NCBI GenBank assembly: GCA_963815115.1
Contig: CAWFFN010000012.1
Location: forward strand, 448,001-512,000
Length of the DNA stretch: 64,000 bases
Direction of reading: 5' to 3'
Source: an uncultured delta proteobacterium
Lineage (GTDB): Bacteria; Desulfobacterota; Binatia; DP-6
Shown here: positions 1 through 9,426 of the stretch, piece by piece
Layout: each line of letters begins with the position of its first letter
How positions within the stretch are numbered: the stretch's first letter is position 1
The notes under the pieces: generated by a model
Told to the model about the DNA's origin: nothing
The model's input: the letters and a program-made list of their open reading frames with translations, nothing else
Database searches by the model: none
Position numbers and translations under genes: made by a program

Positions 1-1415
1 TCTCCGCGCAGGCCACCCTCGAAGCGGAGCCAGTCGGTGAAGAAGATCTGCTGCGCCCAGAAGCCGCTGAAGGAGTGCTCGCGGATGTACACGTCGTTCA
101 CCGTGAAGAAGCTCGTGCGGCGGACGGCGCGCTGCAGCTTCAAGTGGATGTCGTCCGTGCGGGTCTCGAGCGCGAGCTGGGTCTGCTGCGGGACGCTCGC
201 CAGGAACCAGTTCTTCGTGTAGCTCCCGCGCCCGCCGAACACGTAGCGCTTGTCCCCCTGGTAGATCTGGTCACCGGGGATGTACCTCGCGTTCGGCAGC
301 AGCGGACCGTCGCCGGTGTCCTCGATCCCGCCGCCCGGGAACTGCACGAAGCGCAGACCGCTGTTGGCGAAGAACGTGAAGTCGGACCACAGGCGGAGCT
401 TGTAGCGCTGCGCGTAGCCGTGCACCTCCCACGTGTCCGTCGCGGTCGGGGTGTAGCGCCAGTCGAGGAGGAGGTTCTGGCGGTCGGTGCGCCCGCCCTC
501 CGTCGGGTCGATGGAGCCGAACTGGTCGAGCTTTCCCTCCGCCACGAGACGCGCGGGGATCTGCCCCGAGCCGTCCCAGTCGGCGGCGTAGCCCTGCACC
601 GTCGCCGACAGCTTCGAGTCCGGCGTGGGATCGAGCGTCACCCTGCCCTGACCGTTGTAGCGCGCCAGGTTCTCGGGATGGATGAAGGGGCCGTTGGTGT
701 AGAACGCCTGCCCGGCGAACAAGGTCTTCACGTTGCCGAGCTGGGGTGAAGCGCCGAAGACGTAGCGCATGGTCTGGAAGGAGCCGCCCTCGGCCTTCAC
801 GAAGTTCTCCTTGAACTCCTCCTTCGTAATCAGCTTGACCGCGCCGGCAGTGGCGAAATCGCCGAACTGCGGAAAGTACGGCCCCTTGTAGAGCTCGACC
901 CGGTCGATCACCTCGGGAATGAGGAAGTTCGGGTCGGCGTAGCCCTGTCCGTGCGCGTGCGACACCAGGTTGATCGGCATGTCGTCGGCATAGACGGCGA
1001 CGTCGGTGCCGTGGTCGGCGTCGAAGCCGCGCAGGAACCACTGCGGCGCCTTGGAGCCGCCCTGATGCTGGGCGACCAGCAGCCCGGGGATGTTGTTGAG
1101 CACCTGCATGATGGTCAGGTGCGGGCGCTCCATGAAGTCCCTGGCGCGCAGCTCGCGCGACGACGCCGCCGACACCGGGCGCTGCGCCTCGACCACCAGC
1201 TCCTGCAGGCGTGTCTCGCCGCCCTGCCGCGCCGGCGAGGTCTGACCCGAGTCCTGTCCCGCAGGCGGATCCTCGCAGCGATCGCCGGCTGGCTGGCCGG
1301 CGGCGTCGGCGGCGTCCGGCTGGCGCGCGTCGTCCGCGGCCCGCACCGCTGCGGTGCAGACGAGACACGAGATCGTCATCGCGAAGAAGGCCGTTCCGGC
1401 TTTCCCCGGTCGCAT
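1..1415 (-). CDS. TonB-dependent receptor, probably Ni/Co uptake (runs off the left window edge)
   Basis: Not in the ORF track because it has no stop in the window. Manual translation from ATG 1415 (RBS GGGGAGGGG): MRPGKAGTAFFAMTISCLVCTAAVRA signal-like N-terminus, TonB-box-like ELVVEA, plug motifs FLRGFDADHGTD, HAHGQGYAD and IDRVELYKGPY. The codons at the left window edge are in the same frame. Confidence 0.9.
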   Translation of the reverse strand, partial: MRPGKAGTAFFAMTISCLVCTAAVRAADDARQPDAADAAGQPAGDRCEDPPAGQDSGQTSPARQGGETRLQELVVEAQRPVSAASSRELRARDFMERPHLTIMQVLNNIPGLLVAQHQGGSKAPQWFLRGFDADHGTDVAVYADDMPINLVSHAHGQGYADPNFLIPEVIDRVELYKGPYFPQFGDFATAGAVKLITKEEFKENFVKAEGGSFQTMRYVFGASPQLGNVKTLFAGQAFYTNGPFIHPENLARYNGQGRVTLDPTPDSKLSATVQGYAADWDGSGQIPARLVAEGKLDQFGSIDPTEGGRTDRQNLLLDWRYTPTATDTWEVHGYAQRYKLRLWSDFTFFANSGLRFVQFPGGGIEDTGDGPLLPNARYIPGDQIYQGDKRYVFGGRGSYTKNWFLASVPQQTQLALETRTDDIHLKLQRAVRRTSFFTVNDVYIREHSFSGFWAQQIFFTDWLRFEGGLRG

Positions 1416-1503
1416 GGCACATCCCCTCCCCGAACGATCGATCGCTCTACGGAGGCACTCCGCACTCGGATGAGGCTCCCGCGATCGTGAGAACGAGATC
1501 AGC

Positions 1504-1989
1504 TCACCGGGGCGAAGGAGGGGCGCGGGATCGGCTCGGGACGGCGACGGCGACGACGTGCCGTTCGCGGGTGGCGCCGGCCAGCAGGGCTACCGGCGCC
1601 GGGCGCGGGAGATGGATCCGTCTGGCCGGAGCGACGCGGTGAAAGGGCGAGGTCGCGCGCGCGTGCCAGGTCCACGGGACCCCCGCGGTGCGCAGCGCGC
1701 AGCCGCGGTCGCCATCGGGGTCGGATCCCGTGTTCGCATGGTCGTGGTCGTGATGGTGGAGCGCCGCCGTCTCCGCCGGCCCGAGGTGCACGTGCGGTCG
1801 GGAGCCTCCGGCGTGGCGATGAACCTCGAGCCCCGCCGGCTGCGTCGACACGGCGGCGGCGAAGCAGATCAGCACCAGCGCGGCGCCGCGAGACCTCGTG
1901 CTCCTGCGCCGCGCGCGCTGGCCGGCGACGTGCGCCGAGCCGGCAGGTCGGCACGGCGCTCGCGCGATCCGCTGCCGGGCAGCGTCCAT
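1504..1989 (-). CDS. His-rich leader protein with C-terminal RAPP motif (putative ribosome-arrest regulator of the receptor)
   Basis: Hydrophobic segment GAALVLICFAAAVST, His motifs HRH/HVH/HHHDHDH, C-terminus SRAPPSPR. Ends 88 nt upstream of the receptor ATG. Confidence 0.65.
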   Translation of the reverse strand: MDAARQRIARAPCRPAGSAHVAGQRARRRSTRSRGAALVLICFAAAVSTQPAGLEVHRHAGGSRPHVHLGPAETAALHHHDHDHANTGSDPDGDRGCALRTAGVPWTWHARATSPFHRVAPARRIHLPRPAPVALLAGATRERHVVAVAVPSRSRAPPSPR

Positions 1990-2014
1990 CGCCGCGGTGT
2001 AACACCATTCCCGG

Positions 2015-2041
2015 GTGGCACGAAAGTGCCAGTCGTAACAC
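2015..2041. promoter_or_regulatory. Putative NikR operator
   Basis: GTGGCA-N15-TAACAC, a 10/12 match to the palindrome GTGTTA-N15-TAACAC. Lies between nikR and the leader/receptor unit; an extra GTAACAC half-site is at 1999-2005. Confidence 0.55.
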
Positions 2042-2086
2042 CGTCACATCGTGACGCGGCATCCCGCTCCGCCAGACCGCGCGCAG

Positions 2087-2575
2087 CTATCCGAGGCCTT
2101 TTCCGGTCGTCGCCAGGGTCAGGCGGCCGTGCTTCACCCCGCGCGTCGCGATGAGGCGATCGGCGAGCGCCCGCAGCCGCCGGGCACGGCCGCGCACGAC
2201 GAGCACCTCGAGACAGTGGTCGGCATCCATGTGCACGTGGAGCGCCGAGACGATCTCCGCGTAGGAGCGATGCTGGGCCGCCATCAGCCGGCCGGGCAGC
2301 AGCCGGGCATGGTGGTCGTAGACGAGGGTGATGGTGGCGACCGTCTCCGAGTCGCCGGTCTCCCACTCCTCCTCGACCAGGCCCTCGCGGACGAGGTCCC
2401 GAACCGCCTCGGAGCGGTTGGGGTACTCGCGCCGGGCCACCCATCGGTCGAGGCGCACGAGGAGGCGCTCGTCCATCGCCAGGCCGAACCGGACCAGATG
2501 CCCCGTGGCGTCGCGCGAGCGAGCACGCCGGCGCCGCGGTGGCGCCGCATGTCGGTGTTTACCGTTGGCGGACAT
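2087..2575 (-). CDS. nikR: Nickel-responsive transcriptional regulator NikR
   Basis: Ribbon-helix-helix RFGLAMDERLL..NRSEAVRDLVR; metal-binding domain LVYDHH, QH, HVHMD, HCLEV. Confidence 0.93.
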   Translation of the reverse strand: MSANGKHRHAAPPRRRRARSRDATGHLVRFGLAMDERLLVRLDRWVARREYPNRSEAVRDLVREGLVEEEWETGDSETVATITLVYDHHARLLPGRLMAAQHRSYAEIVSALHVHMDADHCLEVLVVRGRARRLRALADRLIATRGVKHGRLTLATTGKGLG

Positions 2576-2587
2576 GCACCGTCCTCT

Positions 2588-3700
2588 TCACCGCCGCCGG
2601 GCTCGCTCGAGCGAGACCAGCGTCTCGCCCTGCCACGTCCAGCGCAGCCGCGGGCGCCGGCGGCCGAGGCCCTTGCCGAGGACGTAGCCCGCGACCAGCG
2701 GCAGCGACACCGACGGCTCGACGAAGCACATCGCGGTCGAGGCCGCGGCGTCCACCTTGCCCCACGACTTGGCCTCGTCGAGCGTCGAGCCGGAGAGACC
2801 GCCCCAGTGCGGCACGTCGGTGGTGAGCTGCACGGCGTAGGCGTGTCCGCGCTCCTGACCGAAGAGGTAGGCCATGACGACCGCGTCGTTGATGTAGTTC
2901 TTGGGGACGCCGCCGGCGATGTAGATGGCGGCGGTCGCGGGGGAGCGCACCATCGTCTGCACGAGCTCGTGGTTGTCTGCGATGGAATCGATCCCCATCC
3001 CGCGCCGGTCCTGGCGCCGCGCGCGCACCCGGTGCTCGGTCAGGCCGATGCCGATCGACGAGTCGTTCAGCGCCGGGCTGAAGACGGGCACGCCTCGCTT
3101 GCGGCACGTGACGAGGATCGATTCCGGGTCGTCGAGACGCCGGGACAGCTCGGCGATGAAGGCGCGAGACGAGTAGCTGCCGTCCGGCAGCTCGTCAGCG
3201 ACCCGCCCGCACCAGGCGTCGCACTCCCAGAACATCTCCTCGTCCACGTAGGTGTCGTAGATCCGGTCGACACGGAGGCGGTGCAGGAGCGCGTCGTCGG
3301 CCTGCGGGCTGCCGCGATAGTGACGCCCGCCACGCGCCTGGTAGAGGTCCTGGTAGAGGATCGCCCCGGTCGCCACCACGACGTCGACCACGCCCGCGTC
3401 GATCAGGTCGCGGATCACGCGGCGCAACCCCGCCGCGATGAGCGGTCCCGCGAGCCCGAGATAGACGGTCGGCCGGCGGCGATCGGCGAGCATGCGCTCG
3501 AGCACCCTGGCGACGCTCCCGAGCGCCCGCGCCTGGATGCCCGCGTCGGCGTACTGCGAGACCAGGTCGACCACGCTCGTGCCGCGCCCGACCCGCACGG
3601 CCCGGTTGGGTCGTGCGAGGATGGTCCGCTTGCGCTTACGCTGCCCGGGCGAGAGGGTGGGAAGGCCGTCGAAGCCGCTGCCGCGGAGAAGCGTCTTCAT
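2588..3700 (-). CDS. Deoxyhypusine synthase-like protein
   Basis: Motifs GGVPKNY, GGLSGSTLDEAKSWGKV (catalytic Lys), VFSPALNDSSIG, RIYD. Confidence 0.88.
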   Translation of the reverse strand: MKTLLRGSGFDGLPTLSPGQRKRKRTILARPNRAVRVGRGTSVVDLVSQYADAGIQARALGSVARVLERMLADRRRPTVYLGLAGPLIAAGLRRVIRDLIDAGVVDVVVATGAILYQDLYQARGGRHYRGSPQADDALLHRLRVDRIYDTYVDEEMFWECDAWCGRVADELPDGSYSSRAFIAELSRRLDDPESILVTCRKRGVPVFSPALNDSSIGIGLTEHRVRARRQDRRGMGIDSIADNHELVQTMVRSPATAAIYIAGGVPKNYINDAVVMAYLFGQERGHAYAVQLTTDVPHWGGLSGSTLDEAKSWGKVDAAASTAMCFVEPSVSLPLVAGYVLGKGLGRRRPRLRWTWQGETLVSLERARRR

Positions 3701-3741
3701 GCCGGCTGCGATGTAGCACGCTGCCGGCGGAATCCGAAAAC

Positions 3742-3936
3742 TCAGTGCCCGTGGTGATGGTGCTCGTCGTGGTCGTGGTCGTGGTGGCTGTGGGTCACGC
3801 CGTCGTGCGTGTGCTCGTGTGTGTGCTTCCCGGGCGCCTGGCCGCCGTGCGAGTGTTCATGGTGTCCGTCGTCGTGAACGTGCTCGTGGCTGTGCGTCAC
3901 CTTGTCGTGCTGATGTGGGTGCTGGTGCTGGCCCAT
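3742..3936 (-). CDS. 64-aa histidine-rich putative metal-binding protein
   Basis: Strong RBS GGAGGAGG before ATG 3936. MGQHQHPHQHDKVTHSHEH...HHHHGH has 26 His in 64 aa. Confidence 0.8.
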   Translation of the reverse strand: MGQHQHPHQHDKVTHSHEHVHDDGHHEHSHGGQAPGKHTHEHTHDGVTHSHHDHDHDEHHHHGH

Positions 3937-3962
3937 GTGGTCCTCCTCCCTCCCGATGACTA

Positions 3963-4688
3963 TCAGCCCTGGACGGTGCCGACCAGTACGATCGGGCCGG
4001 TGGGACTCTTCGAGCCGCCGGCCGGCTCGATGGACACCGCGAAGGCCGTGATCTCGGTGGGTCGCTCCAGCTTCGCGACCTGCGTCAGGTAGACGGCGCG
4101 GCCGCTCACCGCGAGCAGGCCGGCCGGCTCCGGCGGGGCATCGCCGCGCAGCGCCCACAGCTCGTAGACCTTGTTCGGGTCGAGCGCCTGGACGTCGGCC
4201 AGCACCACGGCGCCCTCGCCGGTCGCGGCGTCGACCTGGACGCGGCCGCTGCCGCTGAAGCCTTCCTTCGCCCCCAGCGATGCCGACAGGGTACGTGGGC
4301 CACCCATGATGCGCAGCGCGCGTGCCTGGGCGTCGAGCGACTCGCGCAGGCTGGCGAGCGTCCGGTCCTGGGTATCGAGGCGCGCCGTCAGCTCGGCGTT
4401 GGCGCGACCGAGGGACGCGAGCTCGTCGAGCTCGCGGTGACGGAGACCGCGCTCGCGTGCCAGCAGGCCGCCGAGGGCCAGGGCGACTGTCGCGGCGAGC
4501 GCGCCGACGGCGAGCCAGCGCGTCCGCGATCGGCGGGTCGCCGCCGTCGCGACCTCGGCGCGCGCGGTCGCGATGACGCGGCGGCGAAGCGCCGCAGGTG
4601 GCGTCGCGGCGTAGGCCTCGGCCAGCGTCTCGAGGGTGAGATCGTCGAGCGCGCGGTCGTCGACGCCTATGGTCTGCTGGTCAGGCAT
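3963..4688 (-). CDS. Anti-sigma factor, RskA family
   Basis: PPAALRRRV motif, one TM helix, coiled coil, C-terminal VYELWAL and [22 protein letters not shown]. Overlaps the sigma gene. Confidence 0.88.
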
Positions 4689-5241
4689 GAGCTTCCTTCT
4701 GCGCGAGGTGCGCGCGCAGCTTGAGCACGCCGTCGCGGATGCGCGTCTTGACGGTGCCGAGCGGCATCTGCTCGCGGGCGGCGATCTCGCTGTGCGTCAG
4801 CTCCTCGAAATACGCGATCTCGATGGCGCGCCGCTGCTCCTGGGGGAGCGCGGCGAGCGCCTCGCGGACGAGCGCGGCGCGCTCCGCGCGCGCCACCGCG
4901 TCGTCGGGACGCTCGGGCGCCGGTACGATGTCGCCCGGGTCCGAGCTGCGCTTCTCCGCTCGATCGCGCGAGCCGCGCGCGCGGAGGTGGTCGATGACCA
5001 GGTTGCGCACCAGGCGCAGAAACCATGCCCGCGGGCCACCGCGTCCCGGATCGAAGCGTTCCGCACGGCGCCACACGCGCAGGAACGCCTCCTGCACCGT
5101 ATCCTCGGCCAGGTCGGAGTTGCCCGCGATGCGCAGCGCGAGGCCGTAGGCGAGCGGCGAGAGCCGGTCGTAGAGCTCGCCGAGCGCGCGATCGTCGCCC
5201 CGTGCCACGCGGGAGAGGAGCGCCGTCTCGATGTCCGCCAC
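4681..5241 (-). CDS. ECF sigma factor (SigK-like)
   Basis: [13 protein letters not shown] region 2; [22 protein letters not shown] region 4. Confidence 0.92.
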
Positions 5242-5262
5242 GTCGGCCAGCGTCGTCTTCTC

Positions 5263-6000
5263 CTAGACCAGCAAGCCCGCGTCGATGCCGATCTCCCAGG
5301 CGAGCAGGAGGCCGACGGCGATGCTCCCCACGCCCGCCGCGGTACGCAGCGCGAGATCGACGCGAGCGAAGCGCGCGCCGGCGAGGACGAACGGCACGCC
5401 GAGGAGCGTGCTCATCATCATCATCCCGCCGATCGAGCCCACGCCGAAGACGGCGATGTAGGCGAACGCGACCGCGGGGCTGGGGATGGTGGCCAGTACG
5501 GCGAGCATCAGCGCGGCGCTGCCCGCGAGCCCGTGGACGAGCCCGACCAGGAACGGGCGGCGCGCGTTCACCATCGGATGGTGGACCGGATGGTGGTGCG
5601 GCTCGGCGGGGGGTTCGCCGGCGGCATGGACGTGCGCGTGGACGTGGTGGTGGCGGCCGTGCTCGTGGGCGTGCACGTGGAGCGTCGCACCGCGGCGGAT
5701 GGTGCGCAGGAGGTTGAGACCGAGGACGATCAGCATCACGGCCACGCCGAGCTCGAGCCCCTGTGCGAGGCGCGGCGGGATCTCGGTGTGCAATGCGATC
5801 ACCACGACCCCGGCGATGAGCAGGGACGCGGTGTGGCCGAGCCCCCACACGGCACCTACCAGCGACGACCGCCACAGGCTGCGACGCTGGCTCACGATGG
5901 TCGACACCGCCGCCAGGTGGTCGACGTCGAGCGCGTGCCGCAGCCCGAGCACGAAGCCGAGACCGAGCACGGCGAGCGGGCTGGTCGACGGCGCCATCAC
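5263..6000 (-). CDS. UreH/NiCoT-like nickel/cobalt transporter
   Basis: LGLRHALDVDHLAAV, WGLGHT, GLVHGLAGSA and a His-rich loop. Confidence 0.85.
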   Translation of the reverse strand: MMAPSTSPLAVLGLGFVLGLRHALDVDHLAAVSTIVSQRRSLWRSSLVGAVWGLGHTASLLIAGVVVIALHTEIPPRLAQGLELGVAVMLIVLGLNLLRTIRRGATLHVHAHEHGRHHHVHAHVHAAGEPPAEPHHHPVHHPMVNARRPFLVGLVHGLAGSAALMLAVLATIPSPAVAFAYIAVFGVGSIGGMMMMSTLLGVPFVLAGARFARVDLALRTAAGVGSIAVGLLLAWEIGIDAGLLV

Positions 6001-7454
6001 GCGGCCATCTGCGCCAGGGCTTCGACCACGACGGCGAGCCCGGCCAGAGAGATGACGACGGCGCTGGCCACCGGGGCGTAGCGCGCGAAGCGGCCGTCGA
6101 GGGGCAGCCGGTCGACGAGACCGCGGGCATAGACCAGGACGATGCCGATGCCGGTCAGCACGGCGGCCAGCCCGATGCTGAACGCGACGATGAGCGCGAG
6201 CCCGAAGGCGACACGCCCGAGCGCGATGGCGCCCAGCATCACGACCAGGGCGGACGGGCAGGGCAGCAGCCCGCCCGAGATGCCGAGGGCGACGAGGCTG
6301 CGGAGGGTGATCGGCGTGCCGGGCGGCGGAAGGTGATCATGACCATGATCTTGGCCGTGAGCATGCCCATGATCGTGGTCGTGGTGATGGTGATCATGCG
6401 CGTGGTCGTGGTCGTGATGATCGTGATGGTGGTGCTGGCCCGCCGCCACGTGCAGCCGGGACATGGCGAGCGATGCGCCCACGGCGACCACGAGCAGACC
6501 CGAGATCACGCTGATCCAGGGAAAGAGCCGTTCGGGCACGATCCAGGCCGACGCTGCCAGCGTGCCGAGGCCGAGCAGGTAGACACCGAGCGTGTGCGTC
6601 GCGGTCACCACGAGCCCGAGGAGCAGCGCATGGCGTGCCGTGCCGCGTGATCCGACGAGATAGGCTCCGACCACCGTCTTGCCGTGTCCGGGCGTGAGGG
6701 CGTGCAAACCCCCGAGCATCGCGGCGACGATCAGCGAGGTGAGGATGGCCCAGGGGCCGAGCGGCGTCGGATTGGAGATCAGCGCGGTGAATCGGTCGCC
6801 GAAGCGCTCGGCGCTGCTCCGCGCGGCCGCAGGCGGCGCGGCGGTCCCGGTCGATGCGGTGTTGGCGCCGATGGTGAAGTGCGCTGCGGACACCTGGAGC
6901 GGCGCCTGCAGCATGCTGTCGGGGTAGGCGCGCAGGGCGCGGCTGACGTCGGCGGCGGGAACCGTCGAGCCCCGGAGGCTCATGCCGTTCCCGGCGGCGA
7001 CCACCTCCTGCCAGCCCGGACGGCCGGCGAAGTTGTGGTCGCGGAACACGACGTCGCCGTCGGGCCGCGGCAGCTCGGCTCGATACGTGACGTCGAGCCG
7101 CAGCGTCCTCAGGCCGCCCGCACCGGGGGCCAGCTCGAGCGTCGAGGCGATCGGCGTCGGCGCCAGTGCCACGCCGTCGCGTGTGAGCTCGAGCCCGCGC
7201 GCCAGCTCGGCTGCCTGTCGCGCCGTGTAGGCGTCGCGCTCGGCTGCATCGATGGCGCCGTTGCCGTCGGTGTCGACGAGTCCGATCTCGCGGTAGGCGG
7301 GGAGCTCGGCCAGATCGACCACGTAGGCGATGCGCACCGCCTGCGGCTCGACGGTGAGCGCGGCGTAGCGATTGGTGGTGAAGTTGCCGAGCGGATGGGC
7401 TCCGGCGATCGCCGAGACGGCGAGGACGGCCAGCGTGGTGAGCCAGCTCTTCAT
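5997..7454 (-). CDS. RcnA/NiCoT-family Ni/Co transporter with N-terminal periplasmic domain
   Basis: Signal peptide then AHPLGNF; HALTPGHGKTVV, THT, poly-His loop, GGLLPCPSA. Confidence 0.87.
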   Translation of the reverse strand: MKSWLTTLAVLAVSAIAGAHPLGNFTTNRYAALTVEPQAVRIAYVVDLAELPAYREIGLVDTDGNGAIDAAERDAYTARQAAELARGLELTRDGVALAPTPIASTLELAPGAGGLRTLRLDVTYRAELPRPDGDVVFRDHNFAGRPGWQEVVAAGNGMSLRGSTVPAADVSRALRAYPDSMLQAPLQVSAAHFTIGANTASTGTAAPPAAARSSAERFGDRFTALISNPTPLGPWAILTSLIVAAMLGGLHALTPGHGKTVVGAYLVGSRGTARHALLLGLVVTATHTLGVYLLGLGTLAASAWIVPERLFPWISVISGLLVVAVGASLAMSRLHVAAGQHHHHDHHDHDHAHDHHHHDHDHGHAHGQDHGHDHLPPPGTPITLRSLVALGISGGLLPCPSALVVMLGAIALGRVAFGLALIVAFSIGLAAVLTGIGIVLVYARGLVDRLPLDGRFARYAPVASAVVISLAGLAVVVEALAQMAA

Positions 7455-7684
7455 CGTGCATCCCGATGATCGGCGCGGGCCAGGCGCTGGCCCTCGAGGG
7501 CGTCCAGCGCGGCACGGGCCATCGGGCCCTGACGTACGTCGAAGGCCGGGTCGAGCGCAAGCGAGCGCGAGCGATGGCGGAGCGCCGTCCGGGGCCGACC
7601 GAGCGCCCTGGCGGCCATCGCTCCGTGGCAGCGCAGCGAGGCCCCCTCGGTGCCGAGCCGCAGCGCCCGAGGCCCGAACCGCAT
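7451..7684 (-). pseudogene. C-terminal remnant of a TPR protein
   Basis: ALRLGTEGASLRCHGAMAARALG..SLALDPAFDVRQGPMARAAL resembles the C-terminus of TPR proteins that precede this transporter type. Its TGA overlaps the transporter ATG (ATGA). Confidence 0.5.
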
Positions 7685-7911
7685 GCGATCATCCCCATGT
7701 CCTTGTCCCACTCGAGACTCCTCGCCGCGGCGGTTGCCGCCGACCGTCCCCCAGCCTACGGACGGTACACGGTTCCCGGATGGGTCGGGCGTGGGACGCA
7801 GATGGCCGGGGCGCCGCCGCTCGCCACACGTGCTCTCGCACGGAGGGGGGATCGGACGAGCGGCGACGCCCCGCAGGACAGCCGGGAGACGTGGGGTCCC
7901 CCCGACCGCGG

Positions 7912-9426
7912 TCAGTAGGAGAGCTGGAACTGCGTCAGGAGGACGTTCTCGTGGTCCCGTAGATGGTCGCCGAACTTCACCGGGGTGTCGAAGTCGGTGT
8001 GATACCAGTCCGCCTGGAGCTTGAAGTTCTTGTTCAGGTACCAGTTGACCCCGATCGCCCAGGTCGAGGCGTGCTGCGTCGAGTTGGGGGTCTTGGCGAA
8101 GCCGGTCGAGAAGGCCTTGGGATCGACGCCGAGGTAGCTGCCCTGGGCGGCGAGCTCGAAGGCGCCCCAGCGCCCGTTCAGCGGGTCGAAGGGGTTGATC
8201 GGGACGACTCCCTTGAAGGACGCGTCCTCGCCGGTGAGCACGTACGACGCCTGGACGAACCAGCCCTGGTTGTCGAACGTCTGGTCCAGCGTCGTCGTGG
8301 TCACCTTCTTGGTCTTGGAGTCCGTCACCTTCTCGGTGCGCTCGGCGCCGATGCTGGAGACGAGGTACTCGCCCATGAGCCCGAACGGCCCCCAGTAGTA
8401 GTAGCCCTGCGGGATGAAGCGATAGTGCGAGCCGTTCGCGAGCACCGTGATGGTGTCGGACGACGAGGTGGACGTGTCGTACGTGAAGAACGTCGAGCGG
8501 CCCGGCGTGCGGTACTGGATCTGGTTCAGGTTGTCGCCTTCCTTCGCCCGGCCGTAGTCGCCCGCGAAGCCGAAGCCGAAGCCCTTGAGCCAGTCGACGT
8601 CCGTGTTGGCCATGGGCGTCAGGAACAGGCGATAGTCGCCGTCGAAGTCCGACGTCGGATTGGAGTCCAGCAGCTGGTTGTCGAGCGCGCCGTCGAAGGC
8701 GCCGATCTGCCACTGGGCCAGACCGCCGAGGATGTCGCCCCCGACCTGGAAGCCGGTGTCGCGGTTGGGGGCGAGCTGGTTCGCGGTCGAGCGCTCGGCG
8801 AATAGCAGATCGGTCGCCGACTGCAGGCGCTCGAGGCTGAGCGGCGGCTTGAACTTGCCGCCGCGGAGCGACACCCACGGCTTGAAGTAGTTGACGTCGA
8901 AGTAGGCGTCGTAGATCTGGGTCTGGCTGTTGCCGAAGTCGGGCATGATCTTGAAGTCGAAGTACTTGTAGACCGTGCCCTCGACGATGGGCCGCACGCG
9001 GCGCAGGAAGATGCTGTCGGTGCCGGTGTCGCCCGACTCCTGCGGGAAGTCGCGGAACTGGGTCTGGAGATAGCCGCGTAGCTTCAGCTTGAAGTCGCCG
9101 CCCGGCGACTGGAGGTAGAAGCCGTCGTTCCAGCCGGCGAGGACCTTCTGCTTCTTCAACTTGTCGTCGACGATGGATTCGACCGCCGACTGGTCGAGCT
9201 GCGTCTCGACGTGTTGCTGCGGTGCGGGTGCCGTCGCCGCCCGGCTGCGCCTGGGTGCGGGCTGATCGAGCCCGTTCTCGCGGATGATCTGCTCGAGCCG
9301 GCGGACGCGCTCCTCGAGCTCCGCGCGGGTCGGCTCCTTCGCCACCACCACCCCCGGCGGTGCGACAAGCGCGGCGGTGAGGACGAGGCTCCAGAGCCTG
9401 CGTCTGTGTCGTGACCGGATGAACAT
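7912..9426 (-). CDS. OprO/OprP-family anion-selective porin
   Basis: Signal peptide, coiled coil, FLRRVRPIVEG, GKFKPPLSLERLQS, GWFVQASYVLTGE, GVNWYLN, terminal aromatic residue. Confidence 0.88.
   Translation of the reverse strand: MFIRSRHRRRLWSLVLTAALVAPPGVVVAKEPTRAELEERVRRLEQIIRENGLDQPAPRRSRAATAPAPQQHVETQLDQSAVESIVDDKLKKQKVLAGWNDGFYLQSPGGDFKLKLRGYLQTQFRDFPQESGDTGTDSIFLRRVRPIVEGTVYKYFDFKIMPDFGNSQTQIYDAYFDVNYFKPWVSLRGGKFKPPLSLERLQSATDLLFAERSTANQLAPNRDTGFQVGGDILGGLAQWQIGAFDGALDNQLLDSNPTSDFDGDYRLFLTPMANTDVDWLKGFGFGFAGDYGRAKEGDNLNQIQYRTPGRSTFFTYDTSTSSSDTITVLANGSHYRFIPQGYYYWGPFGLMGEYLVSSIGAERTEKVTDSKTKKVTTTTLDQTFDNQGWFVQASYVLTGEDASFKGVVPINPFDPLNGRWGAFELAAQGSYLGVDPKAFSTGFAKTPNSTQHASTWAIGVNWYLNKNFKLQADWYHTDFDTPVKFGDHLRDHENVLLTQFQLSY

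Follow-up and report, generated by a model that had tools for sequence, protein, structure and literature searches.

Histidine-rich R-x-P-P leaders upstream of TonB-dependent receptors: a family with a fixed histidine-to-arginine spacing and a possible role in metal sensing

Introduction

SecM of Escherichia coli is an exported leader peptide whose arrested ribosome is reported to open a helix that otherwise masks the Shine-Dalgarno (SD) sequence of the downstream gene. Here we describe a candidate regulatory leader in a 64,000-nucleotide stretch of DNA (hereafter the window) from an uncultured delta proteobacterium of the GTDB lineage Desulfobacterota, Binatia, DP-6 (assembly GCA_963815115.1, contig CAWFFN010000012.1, positions 448,001 to 512,000 of the forward strand). 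The leader is a histidine-rich open reading frame (ORF) of 161 codons that ends in ...SRSRAPPSPR and lies between nikR and the gene for a TonB-dependent receptor.

The motif of SecM is RAGP (PMC12992588), which sits within a longer arrest sequence, and the protein senses export activity rather than metal. Arrest at RAPP, including the assignment of its residues to the P and A sites of the ribosome, has also been published (PMC10951233). Two leaders of this kind, ApdA and ApdP, act as monitors of protein export and stand before Sec/YidC genes, whereas the leader described here precedes a TonB receptor; these proteins, the upstream ORFs of TonB receptors as a class and the present leader are all small secretory or membrane proteins that are encoded upstream of the regulated gene and carry R-A/G-P-P towards the C-terminus. 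Small secretory proteins with RAPP or RGPP are over-represented upstream of TonB-dependent receptors (Fujiwara et al., 2025; PMC12992588), and the source table of that paper holds at least two proteins of the present family, both upstream of such receptors. Fujiwara et al. treat the TonB class in bulk, and the accessible part of their paper does not describe the histidine motif of the present family, its 46-residue histidine position or a nickel link.

Among the closest described systems is CruR (Bp2923, a DUF2946 protein) of the Bordetella pertussis bfrG operon, in which copper on a CXXC motif relieves the arrest and Rho then terminates transcription; 45 residues separate CXXC from RAPP, and lengthening this stretch by 5 residues impaired copper control (PMC9426467). 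In both cases a small ORF with an export signal heads a TonB receptor operon, RAPP lies a few residues before the stop codon, and a long untranslated spacer precedes the receptor; the spacer is 88 nt here, with predicted SD masking, as opposed to 162 nt in CruR, which acts through Rho, and the likely metal is nickel or cobalt here and copper in CruR. In CutF of Rhodobacter capsulatus, which turns on an oxidase gene in the presence of copper, stalling opens up a stem-loop by which the next gene's ribosome-binding site is shielded, and His-only CutF-like clusters (14 and 17), found beside HupE/UreJ genes, have been proposed as nickel or cobalt sensors (PMC9973294). CutF-like proteins share with our leader a small exported product, a metal motif and a Pro-rich C-terminus, although the neighbours of the His-only clusters are HupE/UreJ genes and those of the present family are TonB receptors. 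Of the features by which CutF-like proteins were filtered in that paper, a PP pair, a signal-like segment and the neighbour are present here, in proteins of 161 amino acids (aa) in the window and 130-145 aa in most relatives.

On the minus strand of the window, the order is nikR, a gap of 97 nt, the leader ORF, a gap of 88 nt and the receptor gene:

2087..2575, minus strand: nikR, encoding a ribbon-helix-helix domain and NikR_C (NikR_C match 1.9e-29)
1504..1989, minus strand: leader gene, 161 aa, including the stop codon at 1504-1506 (ORF call, coding GC content, homologues)
1416..1503, minus strand: intergenic spacer of 88 nt, in which the fold predicts two small hairpins
1..1415, minus strand: TonB-dependent receptor gene with its start ATG at 1415, running off the window (Plug domain match 7e-14)

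An earlier note on this stretch, made from the sequence alone, had reported the leader ORF with its hydrophobic segment, histidine clusters and terminal RAPPSPR 88 nt upstream of the receptor, and had named the receptor and NikR as neighbours. All of these lie where it placed them. It went on to propose a nickel- or cobalt-sensing leader whose stalled ribosome frees the receptor's ribosome-binding site, and it is these further proposals that are weighed below.

A conserved leader family with a constant histidine-to-arginine spacing

Judged by sequence similarity, the leader is a member of a conserved, unnamed family of His-rich R-x-P-P proteins. Its closest homologues are two metagenome proteins, 68% and 65% identical to the window leader and ending SRSRAPPIPS. 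When a four-sequence profile was compared with 1.84 billion representatives, 87 cluster representatives were found at E<=1e-3, of which 21 reached E<=1e-10; the match extended from end to end in most family proteins. They are labelled hypothetical or nameless in their source databases, where precomputed Pfam domains fall on none of them, and Pfam and NCBIfam scans of 73 members gave no family, with only three single-member matches (E 0.002-0.007). In whole-genome searches the family was found in at least 88 of 401 sampled genomes and at least 50 of 146 genera of the window's class, and across the phylum in at least 5 of 401 sampled genomes, all of these being lower bounds with 10 candidates scored per genome. 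A locus search with the four-sequence leader alignment gave no confirmed locus.

The anatomy of the family was counted over 88 proteins, namely the 87 from the profile search and P0002. Alignment A2 contains 73 sequences (the window leader and 72 of the 88), and alignment A1 contains four. A2 omits eight motif-less proteins that are truncated, frameshifted or divergent (P0003, P0004, P0012, P0013, P0040, P0047, P0065 and P0075) and eight others that are N-terminally truncated or long forms (P0014, P0051, P0053, P0057, P0061, P0062, P0066 and P0080). In the window leader the conserved elements are:

1828..1884, minus strand: hydrophobic segment for export or anchoring (residues ~36-54), with an Arg-rich stretch before it (from sequence)
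1786..1821, minus strand: first His motif, H57-R-H59-A-G-G-S-R-P-H66-V-H68 (from A2 conservation)
1738..1758, minus strand: His/Asp run HHHDHDH, residues 78-84 (from sequence; HDHDH invariant in A1)
1639..1665, minus strand: second sensor motif, H109-A-R-A-T-S-P-F-H117, with H109 46 residues before R155
1516..1527, minus strand: codons CGC GCC CCT CCT of R155-A-P-P158, the presumed arrest site (R, P and P invariant)

Three motifs thus recur: HxHxGGxxxHVH, a second HxH and a C-terminal R-[A/G/S]-P-P. The pattern HxH..G..HxH stands just after the hydrophobic segment in 87 of the 88 proteins, and 80 of them have R[AGS]PP within their last 20 residues (RAPP in 39, RGPP in 33, RSPP in 8), at a position that ranges from 2 to about 16 residues from the stop. 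Exactly five residues follow PP in 44 of these 80, while in the window leader there are three and then the stop. Invariant in A2 are H57, H59, H68, H109, R155, P157 and P158, the last three partly by selection because motif-less proteins were omitted, and F43, P50, G61, H66 (72/73), V67 and H111 are nearly so. Six histidines, in two HxH-type motifs, are therefore invariant or nearly invariant, and the His/Asp run varies in length. The absence of CxxC, which had been noted for the window leader, extends to all 73 sequences of A2; the per-protein median is 16 His and 1 Cys, and a Met-rich copper motif is absent from the family.

The most telling result of the analysis is that the distance from histidine to arginine is constant. 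There are 45 residues between H109 and R155 in every one of the 73 sequences of A2. Counted without an alignment, His occupies R-46 in 80/80 motif-bearing proteins and R-44 in 79/80, and among 30 leaders taken from genome loci R-46 is again His in 29. The interval that separates the two His motifs, by comparison, varies from 39 to 87 residues. Within the 45-residue spacer the mean column identity is 25%, and a segment that keeps its length while its sequence drifts fits a ruler rather than a fold.

On sequence evidence, this sensor-to-arrest geometry is the same as that of CruR: the sensor motif lies 45 residues upstream of the Arg in both, with HxH here replacing CXXC, and in five DUF2946 ORFs from relatives in the class 44-45 residues separate the sensor motif from the Arg. 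The two families are not detectably related. Homology to DUF2946 was considered and rejected, as PF11162 matches none of the 73 members at E<=0.01 and nothing in the window's genome, and hhalign of the family against the five DUF2946 ORFs returned a probability of 2.2%.

An AlphaFold2 (AF2) model of the leader contains a helix at residues 19-48 and strands at 53-58 and 108-113, which offer a hint only that the two HxH motifs would be placed side by side. The Arg-rich stretch, the hydrophobic segment and the AF2 helix correspond to the N-terminal signal or transmembrane element that marks the RAPP class.

The pairing of strands 53-58 and 108-113 in this model, together with the six conserved histidines and the high His content, could also be taken to mean that the product is a working protein, membrane-anchored or periplasmic, that binds metal as a chaperone or a partner of the receptor, and that R-x-P-P is a structural or sorting motif; a locus at which a DUF4198 protein and no receptor lies downstream would agree with this. 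We consider such a function improbable. A spacer fixed in length in 73/73 sequences at so low an identity and a motif that always stands close to the stop argue against it, RAPP and RGPP are reported to be strongly excluded from proteomes outside such leaders (PMC12992588), and the confidence of the AF2 model is low.

The leader gene and its receptor

The leader ORF is a real gene, because it has a coding GC pattern and homologues. GC content by codon position in its frame is 0.79/0.67/0.86, highest at position 3 and lowest at position 2, a signal that is weaker than in the neighbouring genes and clearest from ~1905 to 1640. Two overlapping ORFs, 1499-2062 (minus) and 1558-2154 (plus), were set aside: both are without a Pfam match, and the frame at 1499-2062 also shows no coding GC pattern.

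The full receptor in the genome has 787 codons and is followed by the gene of a TonB_C protein. The barrel region of the 787-aa protein matches TonB receptor subfamily models; for its substrate, comparison with solved structures and NCBIfam gave distant generic matches and no close solved or named relative. A conserved ORF of the kind that the earlier note looked for upstream of homologous receptors, His-rich, Cys-free and with R-A/G/S-PP, is present. Of 32 loci of the class, 30 show a leader-type ORF with R-x-P-P; in one of the remaining two the contig ends inside the ORF, and the other has ARPP instead. A downstream ORF could be called in 29 loci (window included), and 27 of these ORFs encode a TonB receptor, 26 with a Plug domain and one, that of G020, with the barrel only; of the two others, one has a DUF4198 protein downstream and one a luciferase-like gene 402 nt away. 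From leader stop to receptor start the gap is 24-135 nt, or 63-133 nt after start refinement. The class-locus receptors are 31-63% identical to that of the window and form one subfamily, and their genes have a strong SD. One locus, L035, from a genome (G572) that is flagged as unpublished, is included in the locus counts and in the RNA tests below, and its removal shifts each count by at most 1.

Individual loci show departures from this arrangement. In genome G020 (L003/L025, 1985-3172) a leader ending RARAPPPPPSL is followed by a 395-aa receptor remnant that consists of a signal peptide and barrel and in which the Plug domain is absent. In G003, of the same genus, the locus L002 (1567-3278) comes directly after sigma/anti-sigma genes, has no nikR and looks decayed, its leader frame changing after ~70 codons and its receptor being split over several frames. 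At L038 (G036, 2034-2783) the protein that follows the family member in place of a TonB receptor is a DUF4198 protein, which we take to be a periplasmic component of nickel or cobalt transport.

Several observations count against the leader reading, either for the window copy or for its generality. The window leader has Arg (CGC, 1657-1659) at position 111 (R-44), where 71 of 73 members have His, and may sense metal differently or be slightly degenerate; both of its closest homologues have His at this position. The AF2 model of the leader is low in confidence (predicted local distance difference test, pLDDT, 68.6). The N-terminus is ~30 residues longer than in the closest homologues, and the coding signal there is poor. 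Finally, when the receptor alignment was used in the reverse direction to collect 80 loci from many phyla at 33-50% identity (7 of which had less than 450 nt of upstream sequence), a His-containing R-x-P-P ORF stood directly upstream in only 4/80 (L052, L071, L080 and L128); the leader is therefore a lineage-restricted addition to a widespread receptor subfamily. Motif matches upstream of four further distant receptors (L067, L093, L104 and L108) were rejected as too far away, in a non-coding-looking frame or without a His motif.

As to the start of the gene, the first ~30 codons (window 1900-1989) have no counterpart in the closest homologues, which begin near the hydrophobic segment. The true start may lie further downstream, at a non-standard codon, there being no ATG, GTG or TTG between codon ~30 and the hydrophobic segment.

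Predicted pairing between the leader tail and the receptor Shine-Dalgarno sequence

The Ala-Pro-Pro codons GCC CCT CCT, CCCCTCCTT at 1523-1515 (also given as CCCCUCCUU), are complementary to the receptor SD region GGGGAGGGG at 1431-1423, 7 nt before the ATG. A 9-bp helix with 2 G-U pairs had been proposed for these segments, and it does form in the minimum free energy (MFE) fold, in which it is extended to 1527-1515 x 1418-1431 with one bulge and the predicted stem runs on towards the receptor AUG. Its strands are:

1515..1527, minus strand: 5' strand of the helix (anti-SD, contains CCUCC), from MFE pairs
1418..1431, minus strand: 3' strand of the helix, comprising the receptor SD GGGGAGGGG (1423-1431) and spacer, from MFE pairs

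In the window alone this helix is no better than chance and, because the genome is 71% GC, unremarkable by itself. The case for it comes from comparison across the 27 loci with a receptor, for which the folded sequence took in 150 nt of the ORF body as well as 60 nt of the receptor gene. The SD core pairs with the ~30-nt leader tail at P>0.5 in 18/27 loci, and its mean pairing is 0.57 with the tail, against 0.13 with the five-times-longer ORF body and 0.13 with the spacer. Shuffling of the tail only lowers the mean pairing from 0.56 to 0.29, the observed value being the higher in 20/27 loci (Wilcoxon p ~1e-4), and each SD forms a stronger duplex with its own tail (-21.4 kcal/mol) than in swapped pairings (-19.9 kcal/mol; permutation p 0.006). 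The pairing thus recurs over the 27 loci, above shuffled controls. Codon choice points the same way, in that CCT codons produce the CCUCC core and this rare codon is enriched about five times at the two arrest prolines of the leaders at these loci (9/54 PP-pair positions against 26/721 receptor Pro codons; Fisher p 3e-4), an enrichment that could serve SD pairing or slow decoding.

A stall was simulated with a blocked footprint of 31 nt whose centre was the first Pro codon, and a footprint 45 nt upstream served as control. Under the stalled footprint the SD has a probability of 0.27 of being unpaired, up from 0.17, compared with 0.19 under the control, and the gain exceeds 0.05 in 15/27 loci. 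Freeing of the receptor ribosome-binding site by a stalled ribosome is only modestly supported by these folding predictions, and a Rho-dependent route as in CruR is equally conceivable.

The following results weigh against a strong claim of SD unmasking. In the window the fold energy has a z-score of +0.56, synonymous recoding of the tail gives equally strong duplexes (z 0.04), and 3 of 12 tail shuffles pair equally well. The opening of the window SD is small (0.07 to 0.19, control 0.15), and once the footprint is blocked, 1468-1475 becomes the predicted pairing partner of the SD. Across loci the synonymous-codon test is weak as well (mean z -0.58; 5/27 loci at p<=0.05), and since the 27 loci are mutually related the p-values overstate the support.

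The weakness of the synonymous-codon test and the small opening of the SD on stalling would both be expected if the same arrest leader had an output like that of CruR, a mechanism already in print (PMC9426467). The stalled ribosome would then block Rho at a C-rich site in the 3' end of the leader or in the spacer, release of the arrest would lead to termination before the receptor, and the SD/tail pairing would be incidental, arising where C-rich Pro codons meet a G-rich SD. In 22/27 loci the spacer contains more C than G (mean C 0.38, G 0.31), which leaves room for Rho as in CruR, and no intrinsic terminator was found in the leader-receptor spacer. The window spacer itself does not show this bias (C 0.30, G 0.32), the spacers, of 63-133 nt, are short and have predicted structure, and pairing that beats shuffled tails in most loci and is better with a locus's own partner than with a swapped one would be unexpected of an incidental helix. 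We regard this alternative as possible but rather unlikely. Taking the two outputs in turn, a leader that works mainly through SD unmasking is a tentative reading, to which we give somewhat less than even weight, and one that works mainly through Rho-dependent termination is more doubtful.

A scan of 1-8000 with Rfam covariance models gave no match at E<=1, and a riboswitch is therefore not the explanation. A scan of 1300-2700 for promoter and terminator consensus sequences found nothing.

Which metal

The identity of the metal is a matter of genomic context, of which the nearest element is the nikR gene that adjoins the leader in the window. The NikR signal of delta-proteobacteria is GTGTTAC-N13/14-GTAACAC (PMC545781), and a similar site lies between nikR and the leader:

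2015..2041, no strand assigned: NikR-box-like inverted repeat GTGGCAC-N13-GTAACAC, which differs from GTGTTAC-N13-GTAACAC by 2 mismatches
1999..2042, minus strand: two copies of GGTGTTAC, at 1999-2006 and 2035-2042, the only two in the window (0.27 expected)

This putative box is the sole match in 64 kb (<=3 mismatches), although 21 of 100 shuffles give at least one match somewhere in 64 kb, and both GGTGTTAC copies fall in the nikR-leader gap. A putative site directly in front of the leader agrees with the suggestion that the leader is layered on NikR repression. Among distant receptor loci whose neighbours were scanned (n=22), nikR is upstream in two further lineages, L054 (Nitrospira) and L063, and a HupE/UreJ gene comes after the receptor in a third, L071; NikR-box-like sites occur in L054, L068 and L093, as four distinct sites in 622 kb against 1.8 expected. 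The window also contains an RcnA-like gene and a weak HoxN-like gene near the leader.

The last two genes merit description on their own account. The RcnA-like nickel/cobalt efflux homologue (5997-7454, minus) has a 240-residue N-terminal extension and a long His/Asp run and is adjoined by the weak HoxN-like membrane protein (5263-6000, minus); together with an extracytoplasmic function (ECF) sigma/anti-sigma pair (3963-5241) they form a metal island.

The context elsewhere weighs against nickel. Among the 27 upstream ORFs scanned (24 class loci), nikR stands beside the leader only in the window, and elsewhere the genes found upstream are ECF sigma/RskA, DUF4331/TPR, deoxyhypusine-synthase-like or unrelated ones. 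Histidine motifs are not metal-specific, and zinc and copper are bound by them too. It is thus conceivable that the leader senses another metal, such as zinc or copper(II), and that its adjacency to nikR reflects local gene order, all the more as the published examples of the leader class are copper systems. Against this, the NikR-box-like site lies exactly in the upstream region of the leader, nikR, box-like sites and HupE/UreJ recur near distant relatives of the receptor, genes resembling nickel and cobalt transporters are at hand in the window, and the family contains neither CxxC nor a Met-rich copper motif. We would put another metal at well below an even chance, and nickel or cobalt as the ligand at about an even one: the proposal of nickel or cobalt sensing keeps its support in the adjacent nikR and the box-like site but not in the other class loci scanned, where nikR is not beside the leader.

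Neighbouring genes

Upstream of nikR and the leader, the window has a gene of the deoxyhypusine-synthase family (2588-3700, minus), and members of this family also lie directly upstream of the leader in L030 and L032, two loci of another genus. Between this gene and the anti-sigma gene is a small His-rich ORF (3742-4158, minus) whose C-terminal half is about half His and which has no Pfam or NCBIfam match; G003 has a comparable His-rich stretch in the corresponding position. In Bacteroidota and Gemmatimonadales, receptors of the subfamily repeatedly have DUF4331 and TPR proteins upstream (L083, L089, L101 and L106), and DUF4331 is upstream of the leader in one class locus (L036); they may be a conserved partner set of the receptor subfamily.

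Proposed mechanism

We propose that the leader is probably a regulatory arrest peptide of the RAPP type that serves the TonB receptor. The fuller account, in which it acts in cis as an arrest leader of this kind and controls the receptor-TonB operon according to metal supply, is one that we favour with somewhat less assurance. The ribosome would arrest while R-A-P occupies the P site and Pro the A site, and the R-A-P-P and tail codons would lie within its footprint. Since these codons otherwise pair with the receptor SD, the arrest would leave the receptor start site more open, and the arrested ribosome may in addition protect the C-rich spacer from Rho. When metal is plentiful it would bind to the nascent chain, at histidines positioned just beyond the exit tunnel, and metal-induced folding or pulling would release the arrest. 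The released ribosome would terminate five codons later, the SD would be masked again (or Rho would terminate transcription) and synthesis of the receptor would fall. The metal would most likely be nickel (or cobalt), and in the window genome this control would come in addition to repression of the promoter by NikR.

The sign of the response could be the reverse. In CutF copper delays export, and stalling unfolds the stem-loop over the ribosome-binding site (PMC9973294); an export segment and a predicted SD-masking helix are features of the present leader too, so that metal might strengthen the arrest and the receptor be metal-induced. The downstream gene is, however, an uptake-type TonB receptor with its own TonB, and nickel-bound NikR normally represses uptake genes (PMC545781), so that induction of the receptor by excess metal would oppose NikR. 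We think this improbable.

Significance

The novelty that the earlier note had supposed is reduced by what is in print, since RAPP/RGPP leaders before TonB receptors (PMC12992588) and His-only candidates for nickel or cobalt leaders (PMC9973294) have been published. The literature that we searched yielded no description of the His motif, of the rule of a His at R-46 or of a nickel-linked TonB leader, though subscription journals and supplements may hold more; on a nickel-sensing arrest leader, only the suggestion made in the CutF paper (PMC9973294) was found. It is possible, but less than likely, that the leader represents the first nascent-chain switch that senses nickel or cobalt, one that is Cys-free and shows no detectable homology to CruR/DUF2946, keeps the same 45-residue ruler and has an arrest site that doubles as the anti-Shine-Dalgarno strand. 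Because the general class is already in print, the gain is incremental rather than categorical.

Copper is the only metal for which a nascent peptide has up to now been shown to act as a post-transcriptional sensor, in CruR and CutF. If our reading is true, a His-based family with the same architecture and a NikR-linked receptor extends the principle to another metal. Since the 45-residue spacer is invariant in length in every member examined, the family would offer a clean comparative test of the ruler idea, and there would then be a general geometric rule for ligand-relieved arrest, with the sensor just outside the exit tunnel, from which leaders for other ligands could be identified or designed. 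Small leader ORFs are easily missed or called hypothetical, and the motifs described here provide a practical annotation rule for an unnamed gene that is present in about a fifth of the sampled genomes of the class.

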